Shown in pieces: positions 17,692-54,327 of a stretch of 64,000 nucleotides of DNA. Made by a program: the position numbers and the translations under genes. The stretch's first letter is position 1. Each line of letters starts with the position of its first letter. The notes under the pieces were generated by a model. The model was not told where the DNA came from. It searched no databases and saw nothing but the letters and a program-made list of their open reading frames with translations. Source of the stretch: an uncultured Candidatus Saccharibacteria bacterium. GTDB taxonomy: Bacteria; Patescibacteriota; Saccharimonadia; Saccharimonadales; CAIOMD01. The stretch is taken from positions 17,931 to 81,930 of the forward strand of contig CAIOMD010000002.1 in the NCBI GenBank assembly GCA_903859365.1, in the 5' to 3' direction.

Positions 17692-17768
17692 TGGTAGCGG
17701 CGCCGGGGATCGAACCTGGGACCTTAGGCTTATGAGTCCTACGCTCTAACCAACTGAGCTACGCCGCC
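17692..17768 (-). tRNA. tRNA with CAT anticodon (elongator Met or Ile2-lysidine type)
   Basis: Reverse complement GGCGGCGTAGCTCAGTTGGTTAGAGCGTAGGACTCATAAGCCTAAGGTCCCAGGTTCGATCCCCGGCGCCGCTACCA. Cloverleaf with anticodon loop CTCATAA. Lacks initiator features (no GGG/CCC in the anticodon stem). Confidence 0.85.
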
Positions 17769-22091: not shown

Positions 22092-22167
22092 TGGTGGGGC
22101 CGGCTGGACTTGAACCAGCGACCAATCGGTTATGAGCCGACTGCTCTAACCACTGAGCTACGGCCCC
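22092..22167 (-). tRNA. tRNA with CAT anticodon (elongator Met or Ile2-lysidine type)
   Basis: Reverse complement GGGGCCGTAGCTCAGTGGTTAGAGCAGTCGGCTCATAACCGATTGGTCGCTGGTTCAAGTCCAGCCGGCCCCACCA. Regular cloverleaf with fully paired 1:72. Confidence 0.85.
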
Positions 22168-22717: not shown

Positions 22718-22792
22718 TGCGGGGTAGAGCAGTGGCAGCTCGTGTGGCTCATAACCACAAGGTCGCAGGTTCGAGTCCTGCCCCCGCGACCA
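22718..22792 (+). tRNA. initiator-type tRNA-Met (CAT)
   Basis: TGCGGGGTAGAGCAGTGGCAGCTCGTGTGGCTCATAACCACAAGGTCGCAGGTTCGAGTCCTGCCCCCGCGACCA. A11:U24 pair in the D stem and a weak U1-G72 pair are initiator-like. Close resemblance to bacterial tRNA-fMet (CGCGGGGTGGAGCAGC...). Confidence 0.8.
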
Positions 22793-47643: not shown

Positions 47644-47891
47644 ACAGGTCTGGGGAAAGGGTCAGGTTTTCGTCTGCTTGCTCCTTCAGGACGGGAGGGA
47701 CTGGGTTAGAACTAAATTACGGGGGTGAAAATGAAAGAACCGCCCTTTCGGACGGTTCCAACATTTGTAACTTACGTACAGTAAATTAGCATATTGTCTG
47801 ACCAAGGAGAGAAGTTAGGGACAGGTCTGGGAACCTGGTCTACCTATTTCTCTGCTGGGTCTGGCTCAGCATGTCGGTCTAGAACCGAGTC
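47644..47891 (-). repeat. conserved ~248-nt non-coding element, copy A (tRNA-3'-end-like head plus hairpins plus terminator-like hairpin); candidate structured RNA
   Basis: Aligns over its whole length with 50352-50598 (roughly three quarters identical by eye, not computed), with blocks such as CTGGGTTAGAACTA, GGTTCCAACATTTGTAACTTACG and TCTGACCAA.GAGAGAAGTTA. Starts 1 nt after the GNAT stop codon on the minus strand. Confidence 0.5.
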
Positions 47892-48440
47892 CTATCCTAG
47901 CGACAGCTCCAGCTTTATTGGTTGCCAGGTCAGCCCGTTCTCATCGGAGTAAGGCTCACCGTCCTCAACGAAACCAAGACCTTTGTTCATATTGCTCACG
48001 ATGGTATTACTTACCAGGTGTCGAGTGTAAATTGCCGGCGCATGAAGAACGTCCTTCACATAATCGACGGCTGATTGCATCACCGATGCGCCAATCCCTT
48101 TTCCCCGGTACTCAGGGTTACCAATCATAATGTGGATGCTCGGTGGCTTCACGCCGTGATTCTCAAATAGCTCAATCCATACCGCGCCGATAGTCTTACC
48201 GTCGACAACTATCATGCGTGTCATCTGCTTGTTATCTTTCTCGAGGTCCAAAAACTCACGGAGGGTTGCCTTCTCTCCCTCAAGTGTCGATGGCTCTATT
48301 TCGTCTTCGGCGTTTCCCATACTCAGTAGTGTGGCATGACCTTCTGGTCGCTCAAACCAGCTGAGTGCAAAAGATGCATCGCGCTCCGCGTCCGGTACTA
48401 AAAGCTGTATATCAGGTCGATTGGATTGCATGTTTTTCAT
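47892..48440 (-). CDS. GNAT family N-acetyltransferase (GC-rich, probably foreign)
   Basis: 182 aa. RGKGIGASVMQSAVDYV acetyl-CoA motif, NKGLGF. The DNA is clearly richer in G+C than its flanks. Confidence 0.85.
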   Translation of the reverse strand: MKNMQSNRPDIQLLVPDAERDASFALSWFERPEGHATLLSMGNAEDEIEPSTLEGEKATLREFLDLEKDNKQMTRMIVVDGKTIGAVWIELFENHGVKPPSIHIMIGNPEYRGKGIGASVMQSAVDYVKDVLHAPAIYTRHLVSNTIVSNMNKGLGFVEDGEPYSDENGLTWQPIKLELSLG

Positions 48441-48533
48441 TCCTCTTTCGTTAGTTCGTGAGCGTCGAGTGATTCAGCTACCTGTTCAAGTGAAGCCCTT
48501 CTCTGGGTTAGTGTCTAACACTAAAAGTACAAA

Positions 48534-48562
48534 TTGGCTCGGGCTAGAGTCGGATTTTCGAA
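48534..48562 (-). repeat. 29-nt repeat, copy 1 (tRNA 3'-end-like, minus strand TTCGAAAATCCGACTCTAGCCCGAGCCAA)
   Basis: Identical to 51903-51931. Lies 6 nt after the stop of the pilin-like gene. Confidence 0.7.
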
Positions 48563-48568
48563 GCCTGT

Positions 48569-49264
48569 TTAGTAATGCATTGACTCAAAGATGAGCTTAG
48601 CTTTACTAAAGTCAGGATTATTTTCCATAGATGAAACAGATTTATATACAGGCTGATTATTCGATGAATCTTTAGGTCCATTACTATAACTAAAATAATC
48701 ATCGGTCGGACATACTTGATTCACATTGCATACTTGTGTAATATTTTTTGCTGGTATAAAACCGCCTGAAACCGCAGCCCCGGTAGGCTGATCTGGAGTT
48801 CCGGTGACAAGTAATCCTTCGGATGAAGCCTGAATTTTTAGCTGGGTTGGTTTTCCTAAAAATGTGATGGGCACTGAAGCGTAGGTTTTCATAGGAGAAT
48901 CGCCTGCTATTATTCCGGTTCGTAAAGTTATGACATTTCCTGAAGGACTTGCCAATAATGTAGTATCAGCATTATCAACCTGGAGCGATGGAGGATAATC
49001 TGTTAAGGTCCAATCTGCTGGATACTTAAAGGTTATTTTTTCATATTTTAGTGTACCAGTTTTCCAACCAGCATATGGATAAACTGCAGTAGTTTTAGTG
49101 GTTGTTGCAGTCGTAGATGAACTACTGGTCTTAGACTTCTTGTTTACTTGTTTAAAGCCTAGGTAGCCTAGTCCTCCTACGAGAATGAGTACTACTATTA
49201 GTAATAGGACTTCAACGAGTGTGAAGCCTTTGTTCTTATTAGTGTTGTTAGATATCTTGCCCAT
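48569..49264 (-). CDS. type IV pilin-like protein (prepilin-type N-terminal cleavage/methylation domain)
   Basis: MGKISNNTNKNKG/FTLVEVLLLIVVLILVGG is a class III signal (Gly-1, Phe+1, Glu+5) with a hydrophobic helix. The start is set at the Met at 49264 rather than the track start 49345. Confidence 0.75.
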   Translation of the reverse strand: MGKISNNTNKNKGFTLVEVLLLIVVLILVGGLGYLGFKQVNKKSKTSSSSTTATTTKTTAVYPYAGWKTGTLKYEKITFKYPADWTLTDYPPSLQVDNADTTLLASPSGNVITLRTGIIAGDSPMKTYASVPITFLGKPTQLKIQASSEGLLVTGTPDQPTGAAVSGGFIPAKNITQVCNVNQVCPTDDYFSYSNGPKDSSNNQPVYKSVSSMENNPDFSKAKLIFESMHY

Positions 49265-49396
49265 TGTAGATATGTACTTTCTATTTATATTGTTAGTTAG
49301 TTCTAAGCATAAGTATATTAAAAAAAATTGAAAAGAAAAGACCATCTAATTTTAGGCTCACCTTATTTTAGGTTACATCTGTTAATTATTAAGTTT

Positions 49397-50281
49397 TTAG
49401 TCTTCTTTGAAGTCTGCGGCAATCATCCACTTATCGCGCATGCGAAATGCTGGTAAGGTGCCACGTACGGCTTTGTTTATAGCAGCATTTCCTGCTAGAC
49501 CATTTGCTTTTGCCCAGGCGGAAACAGTAATAATTCTTGGGGCCGACAGCAATGTAATTCGTTTATAAAGTGATTCAATTAGTAAGCCCGCAAGAAGTTC
49601 CGTGAATTCGTCGAATTTATTAGTAACTCTATAGGAGTCAAAGGCTGGGTAATAGCTTGTATGTTTGTTTTTGTTTTGAATAATCACAGGTGGAAGTCCC
49701 AACATCATCAGTTGCTGATTTATGAGCACTCGCCCTAATCGTCCGTTGCCGTCATTGAATGGATGGATAGTTTCAAATTCTGCATGAAACCACGCAATCT
49801 TGTTTAGAAAATAGCCATCGTCTGGTTTGTTATAGTTTGCTATAAGCTCTTTGATTAATTGTTCAACAAAGTCTGGGTTAGCACCAATGTGTGCACCTAC
49901 GCGTACCCACTCTTTGCCGCTGCGAAACCTACCAGCCCATTCATCTTTGATGCCCGTAAGAAGCAACTTGTGAAGCTCCAAAATAGAAGTATCATTGATC
50001 ACTTTATATTGATTATCAAGCAAAGTTTGAGTAATTTTTGCTAGATTTTTAGCTTCGTATATCTCACGAATATCATGGTCATTTTTTATTGAATCCCTGA
50101 GTAGAATATCTTCGGTATCCTTTAGGGTTAGAGTAGAGTTTTCTATGGCATTGCTGTTATAGACCATCTCTGGTATTTCTGCGATAGCGATTTCACGAAC
50201 AGCCTCAGGTTTAATTCTCACAAGCATTTGATATTGTTCAGTTAACGTTGCTATTCGGTCTTTTGTGACTTTATTAATCAT
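49397..50281 (-). CDS. Fic family protein (AMPylase-type) with N-terminal inhibitory motif
   Basis: Fic motif HPFNDGNGRLGR. SNAIEN fits the (S/T)xxxE(G/N) alpha-inh motif. 294 aa. Confidence 0.9.
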   Translation of the reverse strand: MINKVTKDRIATLTEQYQMLVRIKPEAVREIAIAEIPEMVYNSNAIENSTLTLKDTEDILLRDSIKNDHDIREIYEAKNLAKITQTLLDNQYKVINDTSILELHKLLLTGIKDEWAGRFRSGKEWVRVGAHIGANPDFVEQLIKELIANYNKPDDGYFLNKIAWFHAEFETIHPFNDGNGRLGRVLINQQLMMLGLPPVIIQNKNKHTSYYPAFDSYRVTNKFDEFTELLAGLLIESLYKRITLLSAPRIITVSAWAKANGLAGNAAINKAVRGTLPAFRMRDKWMIAADFKED

Positions 50282-50287
50282 AAGTAC

Positions 50288-50343
50288 ATTGTATCATACT
50301 TTACGTGAAAATTGGTAGATATGTGCATAATTTCACGTAAAGT
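50288..50343 (-). promoter_or_regulatory. leaderless-type promoter of the 294-aa Fic gene with 13-bp inverted repeat
   Basis: Minus strand TGATACAAT (extended -10, complement of 50288-50296), then 6 nt to the ATG at 50281. Perfect inverted repeat ACTTTACGTGAAA (50298-50310) / TTTCACGTAAAGT (50331-50343), 20-nt spacer. Confidence 0.5.
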
Positions 50344-50351
50344 TGTAAAAG

Positions 50352-50598
50352 AAAGGTCCCGGGGAACGGGTCAACGTTTTGGGTGCTTGCTTGCTCGGGA
50401 CGAGAGAGGCTGGGTTAGAACTAATCTACAGGGGTGAAATGAAAAAACCACCATTTCTGGTGGTTCCAACATTTGTAACTTACGAACTGTAAATTAGTAT
50501 TTCTCTGACCAAAGAGAGAAGTTACTGTAGGTCTAGGAACTAGGTCTACGTTTTTCTCTGCTTGGTCTGGCTCTGCGAACCGGATTTGAACCAAAGTC
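50352..50598 (-). repeat. conserved ~248-nt non-coding element, copy B
   Basis: Homologous to 47644-47891. Minus-strand head TTTGGTTCAAATCCGGTTCGCAGAGCCA matches the tRNA-Asn 3' end at 21 of 28 positions. Hairpin AACCACCA-GAAA-TGGTGGTT followed by TTTTTTC (50446-50465). Confidence 0.5.
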
Positions 50599-50608
50599 AT
50601 AAAAGAAT

Positions 50609-50674
50609 ACAAGGACATTTACAAGGACATTTACAAGGACATTTTTGTCGAGTAGTGTGGTATAATTAGAGTAT
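50609..50674 (+). promoter_or_regulatory. three perfect tandem 12-bp repeats plus extended -10 promoter of the 333-aa Fic gene
   Basis: ACAAGGACATTT x3 (50609-50644). TGGTATAAT with TATAAT at 50661-50666, 8 nt before the ATG at 50675. Confidence 0.5.
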
Positions 50675-51676
50675 ATGAAAGACTATTCACCAGTTTATAA
50701 GATAACACCAAAAATTACCAATCTTGTGTATCAAATTGCGCAAGATTTGGAACGAATTAACATTATCCGTGAACAAGTCCTTACGCCTCATCTACGTCGT
50801 GAAAACCGTATTAAGACTATCCGATCGTCGCTTTATATAGAAGCAAACACCCTAAGCCTAGAACAGGTTGCAGATGTAATAGACGGCAAAACTGTTATCG
50901 GTCCAGAAAGTGAGATTCTGGAAGTAAAAAACGCTATCAAAGCTTATGACAAACTACTTGGATGCGATCCTTACGATGTCAAAGATTTACTAGCCGAACA
51001 CGAGCTGATGACCAAAGATACAGTAAAAGAACACGGTCGGTTTCCTAATAGTGGGGTTGGTGTATATGCCGGCAATGTACCCATTCATGTTGCCCCACCA
51101 GCAGAACAAGTGCCAATACTGATTGAACAATTACTGAAATGGGTAAAAGATGCTGAGTTACCTCAAGTTATTAAATCCTGCATTTTCCATTATGAATTTG
51201 AGTTTATTCATCCATTTGCAGATGGTAACGGTCGGATGGGGAGAATGTGGCAAACTCTTCTTCTCTATCAGGAAAATCCAGTATTTGGGTGGTTACCCGT
51301 TGAGACAGTTATCGCAAAACGACAAGAGAAATACTACTCAGCAATCCAACAATCAACCAAAGAAAGTGACAGTGCAATATTCGCCGAGTTCATGTTAACG
51401 GCTCTTGCTGAAGCGGTGGCAGAGTTCAAGAATAATCAGGGTGTAATCGGAAAGTCTCTTGAAGCACCTTTAAGTAGCACCGAGCAAATTGTATTAAAAG
51501 CTATCGTGAGTAATCCATATACTACCTACCAAGAAATTGCCGAAAAAATTGGCAAAACACCAAAAACCGTTCAACGTACACTTGCCAGTTTAAAAGATCG
51601 TGGGCTTGTATCCCGAGTAGGTTCAGACAAGACTGGACATTGGGTAAGTTATGGGAAATTAAATAAGAATATATAA
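50675..51676 (+). CDS. Fic family protein with C-terminal winged-helix DNA-binding domain
   Basis: Fic motif HPFADGNGRMGR. N-terminal SLYIEA (alpha-inh-like, Gly/Asn replaced by Ala). C-terminal wHTH YQEIAEKIGKTPKTVQRTLASLKDRGLV. Confidence 0.9.
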   Translation: MKDYSPVYKITPKITNLVYQIAQDLERINIIREQVLTPHLRRENRIKTIRSSLYIEANTLSLEQVADVIDGKTVIGPESEILEVKNAIKAYDKLLGCDPYDVKDLLAEHELMTKDTVKEHGRFPNSGVGVYAGNVPIHVAPPAEQVPILIEQLLKWVKDAELPQVIKSCIFHYEFEFIHPFADGNGRMGRMWQTLLLYQENPVFGWLPVETVIAKRQEKYYSAIQQSTKESDSAIFAEFMLTALAEAVAEFKNNQGVIGKSLEAPLSSTEQIVLKAIVSNPYTTYQEIAEKIGKTPKTVQRTLASLKDRGLVSRVGSDKTGHWVSYGKLNKNI

Positions 51677-51828
51677 GTATATAAATTCATGAAATTAAGA
51701 TTAGCCATAACCAAACTTTTCCAAAAACTAACCTACACTGGTGATGTTGTATCTGTTAACTATACGAATTTTAGTCGAGCTATTGCTCAGAATGTGTTAA
51801 AAACTAATAATTTGCTAGGAGGCAAAAT

Positions 51829-51948
51829 ATGAGTAACCAAACTATTAAAAAAGACCCCGATAACAGGGGTCGTAATGAGCTCAATGAGCGCTTGCGTTCT
51901 ATTTGGCTCGGGCTAGAGTCGGATTTTCGAACTATGGTAGTTGTGTGA
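51829..51948 (+). CDS. possible 39-aa ORF overlapping the 29-nt repeat
   Basis: Own translation MSNQTIKKDPDNRGRNELNERLRSIWLGLESDFRTMVVV. AGGAGG lies 7 nt upstream. It overlaps an antisense terminator and the repeat, so it may be fortuitous. Confidence 0.25.
   Translation: MSNQTIKKDPDNRGRNELNERLRSIWLGLESDFRTMVVV
51847..51871 (-). terminator. intrinsic terminator downstream of the Nudix module
   Basis: Minus strand GACCCC-TGTTATC-GGGGTC followed by TTTTTT. Confidence 0.55.
51903..51931 (-). repeat. 29-nt repeat, copy 2
   Basis: Identical to 48534-48562. Directly abuts the TAG (51932-51934) that ends the out-of-frame Nudix continuation. Confidence 0.7.
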
Positions 51949-52114
51949 TTATAGCGAGTGCGGCTTCTAAAAACACCAAATCCCTTGCCTTCACTAATTT
52001 ACCATCAAGATTTTCAGGGTTAGCCCTGGCTACTAATTTTGCTGCATCATGGATGTTATTCGCCCATATAACGTTGTGGCCTTCTTCGGATTCAAAACTA
52101 GTTAAGTTTTGTCG
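51932..52114 (-). pseudogene. out-of-frame 3' continuation of the Nudix gene (60 codons, no start codon)
   Basis: Own translation RQNLTSFESEEGHNVIWANNIHDAAKLVARANPENLDGKLVKARDLVFLEAALAIITQLP. Reads like the usual C-terminal part of Nudix hydrolases. Overlaps the end of the 118-aa ORF in another frame. Confidence 0.45.
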
Positions 52115-52458
52115 TTATCACTTCCAATAACACGAGCCGTGTAGCAGTAATCTACTTGTTTTTTAGACCACCTGTCGAAATATACTTCAGCTCTACCAAT
52201 CTCGCTTATTATCTCAATTTTACAACCCAGCTCTTCAATTATTTCACGATTTAACCCATTTCTAACATCTTCCACATTTTCAATACCACCTCCAGGCAAC
52301 ATATAATAATCGTGTTTGCTTACATGGATAAGTGCAACCCTACCGTCCTCGTCAAATACAATTGCGCGCGCTGCGTTGCGTGGCTTGAATGAATCGTAAT
52401 CAAAATCAGGTGCATTTGAATCAACATCCTTAGCCTTGAGTGATGCCAGTAATTTCAT
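52102..52458 (-). CDS. Nudix hydrolase (apparently truncated by frameshift)
   Basis: Nudix box GGGIENVEDVRNGLNREIIEELG (Gx5Ex7REx2EExG). Only 118 aa. Confidence 0.8.
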   Translation of the reverse strand: MKLLASLKAKDVDSNAPDFDYDSFKPRNAARAIVFDEDGRVALIHVSKHDYYMLPGGGIENVEDVRNGLNREIIEELGCKIEIISEIGRAEVYFDRWSKKQVDYCYTARVIGSDNDKT

Positions 52459-52472
52459 AGAGACATTATATC

Positions 52473-52676
52473 CTATCGCATCATTGAAACAGCGTGGTCA
52501 ACAACTTGTGCTGAACCAAATCTACCCAAAGGATAGCGATCTGCTAAGAACTCTTTTGTAATCAGGGCACCAACTAAATTGGCAATGGCTTCTTCTTTTA
52601 GGCTCGCCTTTTGTTTATTAGCAGGTGCTAGAAAGTATTCTGACAGTTGTTTTCTTACACTACTCGGACTCAACAT
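52473..52676 (-). CDS. hypothetical protein (67 aa)
   Basis: ORF 14 nt upstream of the Nudix gene. No recognisable motif. Confidence 0.45.
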   Translation of the reverse strand: MLSPSSVRKQLSEYFLAPANKQKASLKEEAIANLVGALITKEFLADRYPLGRFGSAQVVDHAVSMMR

Positions 52677-52863
52677 TATTTAATCCTTTAGATAAGAATA
52701 CACCTATAAATCTGTTATGGGTCCGTTCGATAATCATTTGATCCTCGTTCTATAGCTTTTCTAATTCTTCAATAACTTACGGTATTTGACTCGACACTAG
52801 TTATGCGGAACATATTGCTAAGATTTTGGTATTAAAATAGTATACTCAGCTTAAGGAGGTGTG

Positions 52864-53811
52864 ATGTCGAAATTTATTGATTATTATAAAATTCTGGACG
52901 TTGAAACGAATGCTACCCAAGATGAAATCAAAACGAGCTATCGGCATCTAGCAATAAAGTATCATCCTGACAGGGGAGGCGATACTAAAAAAATGTCTCA
53001 AATTAATGAAGCGTATTCTATATTGTCCAATGACAATCTTCGATTTAATTATGATGAAATTCATGACAGATTTTATAATACCTCGTCCCATCACACCGAA
53101 GATTACATAGATAAAACAAATGAATTAATTGCACTCCTCATAATAGCCAAAAAAGCAGCTCGGCAAGCTGCATTAAAAGGATTAGTATATCTAGTCATTG
53201 GCACAGCAATTACTGTTGGAGGGTACCTCGCTTCGTCCAATGGCGGGCATTATTTAATAGCATGGGGAGCAATTTTATTCGGTGGATATAGTTTCATCCG
53301 TGGTCTGCATTATTATTTCAACCCGAACCTTCTATTAAAAAAGTCGATGGGTCCTGAAAAATACAATAATTATTTCGGCTCTGAAAACCTAAGAACCTCC
53401 TACTGGGGAATTGTCATTTCTGTAGTTATTGTCTTAGTTTTATTAGGTATCATTGGTTCCGTTACTGGAGCTAGCGGATCTTCAACTAATGGCAGCTCTA
53501 CATCGGCGTCAAGCGGGGGTTCTCGATCTTTAACGAGTGACCAACAATCACTAAGTGATGAGGCAAACCGTCTTAAATCCGAATATGATACATGCACTAC
53601 CGATTTATCAAATCTGAAGAGTAAAGTCGATGAGTTAAATAGTCAGCTTAATGCTTATGATGCCGCTGGGAATACTTATGGATACAATAGTGTAATTCCA
53701 GAACAGAACTCAGCAGTAAATACGTTCAATCAGAAAAGGGAACAATGTTTATCAGCTCAATCAGCAGCAAATGACGCTGTAGATGCTTATAACAAATCAA
53801 TAAGCCCATAA
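52864..53811 (+). CDS. J-domain protein with two TM helices and Ser-rich/coiled-coil C-terminal region
   Basis: DYYKILDVETNATQDEIKTSYRHLAIKYHPDRGGD (HPD). AGGAGG lies 4 nt upstream of the ATG at 52864 (the track starts at GTG 52861). Confidence 0.8.
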   Translation: MSKFIDYYKILDVETNATQDEIKTSYRHLAIKYHPDRGGDTKKMSQINEAYSILSNDNLRFNYDEIHDRFYNTSSHHTEDYIDKTNELIALLIIAKKAARQAALKGLVYLVIGTAITVGGYLASSNGGHYLIAWGAILFGGYSFIRGLHYYFNPNLLLKKSMGPEKYNNYFGSENLRTSYWGIVISVVIVLVLLGIIGSVTGASGSSTNGSSTSASSGGSRSLTSDQQSLSDEANRLKSEYDTCTTDLSNLKSKVDELNSQLNAYDAAGNTYGYNSVIPEQNSAVNTFNQKREQCLSAQSAANDAVDAYNKSISP

Positions 53812-53825
53812 AGTGGCAACAAAAT

Positions 53826-54137
53826 CTATTTGGGGGATTTCGTTTCTGCAGTTAATGAAACTAGGAAGAATAAACCTAACCCAACGTCAAGGGTATGCCA
53901 AAGTTGCTTATCAAGGTATATCGGGAATATAGGATTGAATATTATGGCGGGGATAAGAAATGCGTAACTCAACATTTCTAAGTGGTTCTCTTTAAAGTAC
54001 CAGAAGGAATAGAGAGAAGCACCACATACCACTATTCGAAGAATCTGGTAATAAGAATACGGCCAGCTTCCAAGAGCTAGTAACAGCATTATTCCTGTCG
54101 TCAATCTTACTGCTATAGATAGTTTTTTATTCTCCAT
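53826..54137 (-). CDS. small polytopic membrane protein
   Basis: Hydrophobic ORF. I prefer the ATG at 54137 (MENKKLSIAV...) because the track's TTG start (54203) lies inside the terminator hairpin of tRNA-Asn. Confidence 0.5.
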   Translation of the reverse strand: MENKKLSIAVRLTTGIMLLLALGSWPYSYYQILRIVVCGASLYSFWYFKENHLEMLSYAFLIPAIIFNPIFPIYLDKQLWHTLDVGLGLFFLVSLTAETKSPK

Positions 54138-54184
54138 GAAGAGGTACTTAATCAATCTGGTACTTTCGAACTTGAAATTAGATG

Positions 54185-54217
54185 GAAAAAGGCTCGTTTT
54201 CAATCTGAACGAGCCTT
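54185..54217 (-). terminator. intrinsic terminator downstream of tRNA-Asn
   Basis: Minus strand AAGGCTCGTT-CAGATTGAA-AACGAGCCTT (10-bp stem) followed by TTTTCC. Confidence 0.55.
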
Positions 54218-54252
54218 TTCTTGCATTCTCTGTAGCTAATAAATCTCAATCT

Positions 54253-54327
54253 TGGCTCCGGGGACTGGATTCGAACCAGCGACCTAGTGGTTAACAGCCA
54301 CCCGCTCTACCGCTGAGCTACCCCGGA
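54253..54327 (-). tRNA. tRNA-Asn (anticodon GTT)
   Basis: Reverse complement TCCGGGGTAGCTCAGCGGTAGAGCGGGTGGCTGTTAACCACTAGGTCGCTGGTTCGAATCCAGTCCCCGGAGCCA. Cloverleaf with anticodon loop CTGTTAA, G73 discriminator, encoded CCA. Confidence 0.9.

Follow-up and report, generated by a model that had tools for sequence, protein, structure and literature searches.

The SCCmec and pseudo-SCC islands of staphylococci are inserted at the 3′ end of rlmH/orfX by large serine recombinases (LSRs), namely CcrAB and CcrC, and tRNA ends are classic targets of tyrosine integrases. Here we describe an accessory island at the 3′ end of a tRNA-Asn(GTT) gene in an uncultured Candidatus Saccharibacteria bacterium. 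The island lies in a 64,000-nt stretch of contig CAIOMD010000002.1 (positions 17,931–81,930), which we call the window and to which all coordinates refer unless a locus is named. Comparison loci from relatives or metagenome contigs carry L-numbers (L011–L183), and P0139 and P0164 denote recombinase homologues. We concluded that the island is a stack of modules, and that it was most likely built by LSRs using the tRNA end as their attachment site.

The logic of this locus appears closest to that of SCCmec composite islands, and close also to that of tycheposon islands. As in SCCmec, an LSR would insert at the 3′ end of a conserved housekeeping gene that is kept, and units are stacked in tandem with short target repeats between them, many lacking a recombinase. 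The resemblance is one of mechanism and not of membership. The recombinases described below fall outside the Ccr and XisF families of NCBIfam, and their distant matches to the CcrB and CcrA models (45–47 bits) are far below the cut-offs of 700–900; moreover, the target here is a tRNA gene, the recombinase 3′ end overlaps the site, the units are smaller and often consist of one gene, and the host is a bacterium of the Candidate Phyla Radiation (CPR). In the tycheposons of Prochlorococcus, repeated integration takes place by tRNA genes and newer elements push older ones inward, giving islands with partial tRNAs, fragmented integrases, small adaptive cargo and mostly tyrosine recombinases (bioRxiv 10.1101/2020.12.28.424599). 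Stacked integrations at a tRNA, partial tRNAs, recombinase fragments and small cargo are found here as well, but at this tRNA-Asn site serine recombinases alone were seen.

Three further systems share individual features with the locus. Like the A118-type LI integrase of Listeria, the recombinases of the tRNA-Asn elements combine Resolvase, Recombinase and zinc-ribbon domains, and there are half-site classes 5 bp apart (PMC3783163). Unlike phage serine integrases, they travel with defence and stress cargo and with SpoVG and excisionase-like genes, and they target a tRNA end; no capsid or tail families were present in the gene tables of the recombinase elements. The classical tRNA-Asn islands of enterobacteria, for example the asn tDNA islands of Klebsiella (PMC4891358), likewise use this tRNA 3′ end as an integration hot spot and bear direct repeats of it. 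Those islands have P4-like tyrosine integrases and extend over tens of kilobases, whereas no tyrosine integrase was found in the proteins scanned here and the modules measure 0.7–3.5 kb. In L178, and partly in the window, one-gene units end in a common short site a few bases past the stop codon and are lined up behind one fixed site, as in integrons. In contrast to integrons, the scanned window open reading frames (ORFs) encode no IntI or other tyrosine recombinase, the fixed site is a tRNA end, and the cassettes appear to close with a 29–30-nt tRNA-like site instead of an attC-type hairpin, each having its own terminator and promoter-like leader. Full-text literature searches returned no paper describing this tRNA-Asn serine-recombinase system.

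The anchor site of the island is the last ~26 nt of the tRNA gene (T arm, acceptor 3′ strand and CCA). An earlier reading of the letters of this stretch, which we call the original prediction, had placed the gene correctly:

54253–54327, minus strand: intact tRNA-Asn(GTT) (ARAGORN; Rfam, 70.5 bits; junction table).

The same locus was identified in relatives by a LexA-like gene two genes upstream of the tRNA, the order being LexA-like, DUF5684, tRNA-Asn. In every compared locus, similarity to the window ended exactly after ...GGAGCCA, the end of the tRNA; in window coordinates the break in homology lies at GAGCCA, 54253–54258. The DNA past the break differed among relatives, listed here with the identity of their LexA-like protein to that of the window:

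L097, 87%: just 20 nt after tRNA-Asn, then the next gene; an empty site.
L098, 87%: ~2 kb with a different pilin-like gene, a methyltransferase and DUF1801.
L093, 85%: ~7.6 kb with a kinase, a phosphatase, a 369-aa protein, a Nudix gene, the window's pilin-like gene, a Kelch-repeat protein and others.
L011, 94%: another pilin-like gene.
L177, 97%: a 596-aa protein.
L178, 95%: an array of a Kelch gene, a pilin-like gene and an ABC transporter.

Loci L093 and L095 have a module of 3.5–3.6 kb whose closing sequence repeats the tRNA end perfectly over 26 nt; the two loci are 99.9% identical up to this copy and unrelated immediately past it. The cleanest cassette-like version of the locus was in L178 (1110–5173), where the tRNA is followed by a leader, the Kelch gene, an R site (defined below), a leader, the pilin-like gene, an R site, a leader, the ABC transporter, and a core-like site with its leader. 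The original prediction had proposed serial site-specific integration into the tRNA 3′ end or, alternatively, a cassette-like array, and had named as a check whether modules are gained or lost exactly at the junctions. Modules do vary exactly there (L093/L095, L097 and other loci). Serial integration is supported by the variable cargo and the exact breaks, and the array alternative by L178, whose orderly one-gene cassettes are each closed by the 29-mer site of the window. Separately, the five independent contigs of L013, L091, L092, L096 and L179 end inside tRNA-Asn or within ~70 nt past it, which suggests assembly breaks in populations that are mixed at the site. Locus L017 (4575–5917) is a contig binned as Prolixibacteraceae that contains a tRNA-Asn identical to the window's and a Saccharibacteria LexA-like gene, probably a binning error in the public record.

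Next to the tRNA end, the window retains a remnant of a recombinase gene:

54133–54252, plus strand: 3′-end relic of an LSR gene, its last ~40 codons (tblastn, BLASTP, DNA homology).

A tblastn search with the L170 recombinase matched window 54133–54261 on the plus strand, against the tRNA, with 46.5% identity over 43 aa, and BLASTP aligned the relic with the C-terminus of P0139 (residues 461–511; 53% identity over 51 aa, E = 8e-15). The window DNA past the tRNA was likewise homologous to the 3′ end of the L170 recombinase gene. The relic frame reads ...KRYLINLVLSNLKLDGKRLVFNLNEPFLAFSVANKSQSWLR and runs on into the complement of the tRNA, where the residues W-L-R are spelled by TGGCTCCGG at 54253–54261. 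Since CCGGAGCCA of the tRNA is the complement of these codons, the end of the recombinase gene falls within the site. The original prediction had stated that the island has no recombinase. This holds for intact genes in the scanned ORFs of at least 110 aa, none of which has a Resolvase domain, but it missed the C-terminal relic. (These window ORFs were covered by a Pfam scan or by the gene table, and several of the scanned ones had no Pfam match of any kind.)

A search of relatives for a recombinase beside tRNA-Asn, which the original prediction had suggested, found intact serine recombinases abutting the tRNA. The 11-kb island of L170 encodes a 489-aa protein with Resolvase, Recombinase and Zn_ribbon_recom domains, and proteins of the same architecture were present in L172, L176, L180 and L183. 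In L071, L176, L180 and L183, intact genes of this family abut tRNA-Asn in the position and orientation of the window relic, and in three of these four loci the neighbouring chromosomal genes include the LexA-like gene. A database search gave 728 homologues with E ≤ 1e-20, and we read the family signature from the 120 that were listed. Almost all of these 120 have the tail ...NWL(R/P)xx(D/G)SN(Q/R)..., which is the peptide read from a tRNA 3′ end (acceptor stem and T loop) in reverse complement. The few listed homologues with other tails diverge right after W-L, which points to a crossover at or next to GAGCCA; three further tail types that are not tRNA-derived occurred among the homologues.

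The ends of the L170 element could be compared directly. Its far and near ends share just CGGAGCCA (~8 nt), and the reconstructed joint of the element reads ...CAACTAGACGGAGCCAAGATTGATT.... The insertion point of this element is precisely where a second, pseudo-target copy of the ~245-nt repeat described below begins, indicating that such copies can serve as targets. L172 has a near-end junction like that of L170, and its far end lies beyond the contig. The backbone of the elements comprises the recombinase, a 369–371-aa protein, SpoVG and a small excisionase-family protein. The unannotated 369–371-aa gene and SpoVG lie beside the recombinase in L175, L176 and L180 and are both absent from L183, and the 60–64-aa HTH_17/excisionase-family protein (TIGR01764, 31.6 bits against a cut-off of 28.8) is present in L175, L180 and L183 but not L176; the Pfam scan of the window island revealed no excisionase-family gene. 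Cargo consists of type I restriction-modification and SduA_C in L176, type III restriction-modification and a SocA/Panacea pair in L180, and an AAA ATPase with DUF6414 in L183. A phmmer comparison of the recombinase with solved structures gave no similarity at E ≤ 0.001.

Several observations concern other recombinases or recombinase candidates. The 17.8-kb contig L175 encodes a member of this LSR family but contains no tRNA; the end of the recombinase gene borders on ...CTATCGTAGT|GAGCCA, and at a distance of 8.5 kb there is a site with 22-nt spacing (positions 44 and 8523). L175 may represent insertion at a non-tRNA site. We rejected two proteins as hidden recombinases: the 369-aa protein of L093, which had no Pfam match, and a 396-aa ORF beside the tRNA in L017, which had none either and looks like a membrane protein by eye. 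Downstream of the ~245-nt element there are also genes, oriented toward the tRNA, for a second family of serine recombinases (~425 aa, C-terminal ...GELEFYK, distantly CcrB-like). This family was found in seven metagenome loci (L100, L101, L111, L121, L133, L136 and L152; directly after the element in L152), with no recognisable site at either end of these genes. The 'native' ~245-nt element may thus itself be the end of another mobile element.

The tRNA-like sites fall into two clean classes by the distance from TTCG, in the tRNA T loop, to GAGCCA. The distance is 17 nt in five tRNA-Asn genes and in six attB-like copies (window cores A and B, and the extra copies of L093, L136, L170 and L172). 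It is 22 nt in the R sites and in the far ends of five recombinase elements (L170, L180, L183, L175 and L142). In serine integrases, the outer zinc-ribbon motif lies 5 bp nearer the centre in attB than in attP (PMC3783163), and the split between 17 and 22 nt equals the 5-bp shift expected between attB and attP half-sites. On that reading, the tRNA and the 17-nt sites would be target-type halves, the R sites would be element-type halves, and the junctions consisting of an R site plus downstream sequence would be the right-hand junctions left by integration.

The sites in the window to which these classes apply are as follows:

51903–51931, minus strand: site R2, TTCGAAAATCCGACTCTAGCCCGAGCCAA (exact repeat; recurrence in L093, L011, L098 and L178; spacing table).
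48534–48562, minus strand: site R1, identical to R2, closing the pilin cassette (exact repeat; junction and spacing tables).
49331–49382, minus strand: junction scar (blastn against L093; arm consensus).

All four tRNA-like segments that the original prediction had listed are present at its coordinates. The two R sites are identical 29-mers, with 92% identity over 36 nt. R2 marks the far end of the first module; with its TTCG-to-GAGCCA distance of 22 nt, it would be an attP-type left half-site if the spacing is read as above. R sites recur almost unchanged in L093, L011, L098 and L178, always a few bases past a stop codon, and therefore represent a conserved site and not a randomly decayed tRNA copy. 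We assessed chance matching with 200 dinucleotide shuffles of the window. The segment at 50568–50595 matched the tRNA 3′ end at 21 of 28 positions, exactly as counted before, and none of the 200 shuffles reached 21. The segment at 47862–47888 matched at fewer than 17 of 28, which by itself is at chance level, and we accepted it as real because it can be aligned with 50568–50595. Three of the sites begin right after minus-strand stop codons, at a measured 0–6 nt. The idea of decaying tRNA copies was right in recognising tRNA-end sequence; simple decay does not describe sites that form two conserved classes with 17- and 22-nt spacing.

The scar at 49331–49382 is a fifth junction beyond the four predicted. 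Here a conserved ~45-nt arm, which in other loci precedes extra tRNA-end copies, is joined directly to the pilin-cassette leader at its terminator, the copy of the tRNA end having been deleted. By blastn, window 49348–49398 matched L093 14491–14541 and window 48534–49352 matched L093 14610–15428. The arm resembles the D-arm region of a tRNA, as judged by eye only. We did not adopt decayed full-length tRNA pseudogenes as an explanation of the extra sites, which the tRNA covariance model misses. The extra sites matched no Rfam family even at E ≤ 10, and weak Rfam matches to CRISPR-DR38, Thr-leader and snoRNA look like chance. Inspection of the reconstructed sites by eye gave no convincing dyad symmetry.

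The two degenerate segments at 50568–50595 and 47862–47888 proved to be the 5′ starts of a ~245-nt direct repeat, whose copies in the window are about 81% identical:

47644–47888, minus strand: copy A, alpha type (repeat search, alignment; placement of the alpha type in relatives).
50350–50595, minus strand: copy B, beta type (repeat search, alignment, shuffle test, spacing table).

Copy A adjoins the conserved flank and is probably the original sequence downstream of the tRNA; its degenerate tRNA end occupies 47862–47888 and a second T-arm-like stretch 47689–47716. Copy B starts with the degenerate tRNA end at 50568–50595 (17-nt spacing), followed by a terminator hairpin and a second T-arm-like stretch. 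In the repeat, this second stretch lies ~165 nt in, and the motif GACCnGGTTCCnAGACC occurs twice. When metagenomes were scanned with a 19-nt pattern of the repeat and then searched with a profile, 51 matches were obtained, most of them full-length. In at least 27 loci an intact tRNA-Asn comes immediately before the element, which overlaps the last 31 nt of the tRNA; the element is therefore the usual downstream neighbour of this gene in many Saccharibacteria. Clearly different tRNA-Asn genes can have near-identical copies behind them. Pairs of copies within one locus enclose 1.4 to 11 kb of foreign cargo, such as a set of oxidative-stress genes in L136 and one of transporter and phosphatase genes in L153 and L170. 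The alpha type adjoins the conserved downstream genes: it is the sole copy at the unoccupied sites of L100 and L121, and the distal or native copy in L136 and L153. The beta type adjoins the tRNA where an island is present.

The terminator hairpin differs between copies A and B by compensatory changes, and across copies it covaries from GC to AU in four sequences and from AU to CG in eight. Upstream of the terminator lies a second, small hairpin that is preserved in three versions of unrelated sequence. Clear covariation is confined to the terminator, and the long stem is almost invariant and thus little informative. The element had no Rfam match at the gathering score or at E ≤ 10, nor had it any in six related loci. 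In virus contigs, an 18-mer of the repeat had eight matches, all within unrelated tail-fibre coding repeats (VTNVGT), and the R-site 27-mer had none. As a side observation, the element could also be a stable 3′-trailer RNA or a control region of downstream genes, which often encode a 94-aa protein and a P-type ATPase.

The cargo of the window island was consistent with what had been predicted, as Pfam supported the DnaJ-membrane, DUF6804, Nudix-fragment, Fic-wHTH, Fic, pilin-like (below cut-off) and GNAT assignments. From the tRNA leftwards, the genes are:

53826–54137, minus strand: DUF6804 small membrane protein, first-module cargo (Pfam PF20619, E = 4.8e-21).
52861–53811, plus strand: J-domain membrane protein, first-module cargo (Pfam DnaJ, E = 8e-20).
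52473–52676, minus strand: 67-aa ORF (BLASTP, 79% over 43 aa, E = 8e-24, to the 369-aa protein).
51932–52458, minus strand: frameshifted Nudix gene (Pfam NUDIX, E = 5.7e-11; blastn).
50675–51676, plus strand: Fic-wHTH protein (Pfam Fic, E = 3.6e-17; HTH_24, E = 6.6e-8).
49397–50281, minus strand: Fic protein of the module that starts with copy B (Pfam Fic, E = 1.5e-19).
48569–49345, minus strand: pilin-like cassette (N_methyl motif below the Pfam cut-off, E = 0.007, 16.3 against 21.2 bits; blastn).
47892–48440, minus strand: GNAT acetyltransferase in a stretch of higher G+C (Pfam Acetyltransf_3 and Acetyltransf_1; composition).

The first module runs from the recombinase relic through DUF6804, the J-domain protein, a relic of the 369-aa protein and the broken Nudix gene to R2. 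It is a decayed recombinase element with both ends recognisable. The 67-aa ORF had been listed as cargo; it is present, but BLASTP identified it as the C-terminal relic of the 369-aa protein, which is intact in the L093 module. The Nudix stretch has 68.6% DNA identity to the 369-aa/NUDIX stretch of L093. The island continues with Fic-wHTH as its second unit, then core B with the beta element, Fic and the junction scar, then the pilin cassette closed by R1, then GNAT, and finally core A with the alpha element and the conserved flank. The pilin cassette, whose protein has its probable start at the ATG at 49264, is 97.9% identical in DNA to L093 over 819 nt, whereas the flanking 5 kb are just 77% identical; the cassette has therefore moved recently between species. 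With its recombinase reduced to 40 codons, one junction deleted and the Nudix and 369-aa genes broken, the window array is decayed and recombinase-dead, and thus probably immobile on its own.

We propose the following mechanism for the origin of such arrays. An LSR element would insert by a crossover in or beside GAGCCA, the last bases of the tRNA, so that its recombinase gene would abut the tRNA with its 3′ end and the last codons, W-L-R, would be the complement of the tRNA end. The other end of the element would form a junction with an attP-type left half, in which TTCG is 22 nt and not 17 nt from GAGCCA. Many modules have no recombinase and start with a copy of tRNA-downstream sequence, either the ~245-nt element or a ~100-nt leader of terminator plus promoter. 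With such a target-like leader at each module start, insertion would restore the target beside the tRNA and permit further stacking, with the newest module next to the tRNA. Modules without a recombinase may have depended on a recombinase acting in trans or, following DNA uptake, on homologous recombination between copies of the leader; in our opinion, both contribute. The recombinase-bearing elements fit ordinary integration of a serine integrase into the tRNA end.

Several points weigh against this mechanism. No intact recombinase was recognised in the 64-kb window, in either the scanned ORFs or the gene table. The putative assignment of TTCG(A/T)A as the zinc-ribbon motif is read from the spacing alone, and the far ends of L180 and L183 were chosen by motif and intergenic position, not via empty sites. 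Recombinase-less modules are flanked by whole-leader repeats (~100 to 245 nt) or by 26-nt copies. Serine recombinases normally leave a 2-bp repeat, and repeats of such length are not made by a serine integrase alone; the 26-nt and ~245-nt repeats thus need the extra assumption of target-like module ends or of homologous recombination. Furthermore, recombination of a recombinase-less circle with an attR- or attB-like site and a chromosomal site is a non-canonical reaction for a serine integrase. We entertain only tentatively the bolder possibility that a serine recombinase family common among Saccharibacteria and other CPR bacteria runs an integron-like gene-capture platform on the tRNA-Asn end. 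In such a platform, the tRNA end and the conserved downstream element would form the fixed acceptor site, one-gene cassettes would carry an R site (attP-type half) at one end and a target-regenerating leader at the other, and the recombinase would insert and excise recombinase-less cassettes in trans.

The long repeats raise the question of whether any site-specific enzyme is needed now. Saccharibacteria are naturally transformable, and modules could have been exchanged by RecA-dependent recombination between leaders and flanks, the tRNA-like pieces being old scars. The repeats are long enough for this (~245 nt at 81–92% identity, as well as 100–140 nt at 85–97%, which include a ~130-nt unit of R site plus leader), the modules are flanked by whole-leader repeats rather than by a core only, a near-identical pilin cassette occurs in divergent genomes, and the window junction at 49331–49382 is a deletion between such repeat units. 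As the sole explanation we nevertheless consider it unlikely, because it leaves unexplained the base-exact breaks at GAGCCA, the recombinase genes that end in the site (in four loci, and in nearly all of the 120 listed homologues) and the two discrete spacing classes; most likely, homologous recombination acts in addition to the recombinase and not instead of it. The perfect 26-nt direct repeat from T stem to CCA that flanks the L093/L095 module could instead suggest a phage-type tyrosine integrase, now lost or located elsewhere, whose T-loop crossover would duplicate the tRNA 3′ end, since att cores of tyrosine integrases are typically of such length and position. A direct repeat of the tRNA 3′ part is indeed present at the far end of modules, perfect over 26 nt in L093/L095 and degenerate in the window (21/28 at 50568–50595). 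However, no Phage_integrase domain was detected in the scanned window ORFs or in the scanned proteins and gene tables of the L093, L098, L136, L170, L176, L180 and L183 islands, the gene that actually abuts the tRNA end is a serine recombinase, and bona fide junctions of LSR elements share just ~8 nt, all of which makes such an integrase very unlikely.

It is also conceivable that the ~245-nt repeat is a structured-RNA gene or the 3′ trailer, terminator or control region of the tRNA, duplicated by chance and without any role in recombination. About 50 copies exist, at least 27 of them directly after an intact tRNA-Asn, the terminator shows compensatory changes and the second hairpin is kept in three sequences; the absence of an Rfam match was also counted in favour. 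We regard this as highly improbable, given that paired copies bracket 1.4 to 11 kb of foreign cargo, that near-identical copies lie behind clearly different tRNA-Asn sequences, and that in L170 the insertion of the recombinase element falls precisely where a second copy begins. A role as trailer or terminator is, moreover, compatible with being the right half of a target site. Integration by LSRs at the tRNA end thus remains our preferred explanation for the island, although both the catalysis of these events by LSRs and the crossover in GAGCCA are deduced from sequence comparison.

Other tRNA genes of the window show arrangements that we record separately. Identical tRNA-Lys(TTT) genes at 282–358 and 1930–2006 lie inside a perfect 78-nt repeat, 1648 nt apart, and flank a 207-aa ORF (1142–1765) without a Pfam match; this repeat may be another tRNA-linked insertion or a duplication. 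Three tRNA-Met(CAT) genes occur within 5 kb (17692–17768, 22092–22167 and 22718–22792), two of which face each other at 22.1–22.8 kb.

The genomes of Saccharibacteria and other CPR bacteria, which live on other bacteria, are very small, and the mobile elements in them have been little described. The tRNA-Asn locus is a defined hot spot whose content of pilin-like, Fic, Kelch, transporter, kinase and stress genes varies between close relatives, and recombinase-bearing elements import restriction-modification systems there, with plausible functions in host interaction and defence. An LSR family whose own gene ends inside its tRNA-Asn site is an unusual pairing of enzyme and target, and it is directly testable, because target and element joints can be written from sequence. 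For organisms that are still hard to manipulate, a serine integrase whose natural site is present in every Saccharibacteria genome could be turned into a tool for one-step integration. If the capture platform outlined above is real, these tiny genomes would hold an exchangeable shelf of surface, toxin and defence genes.

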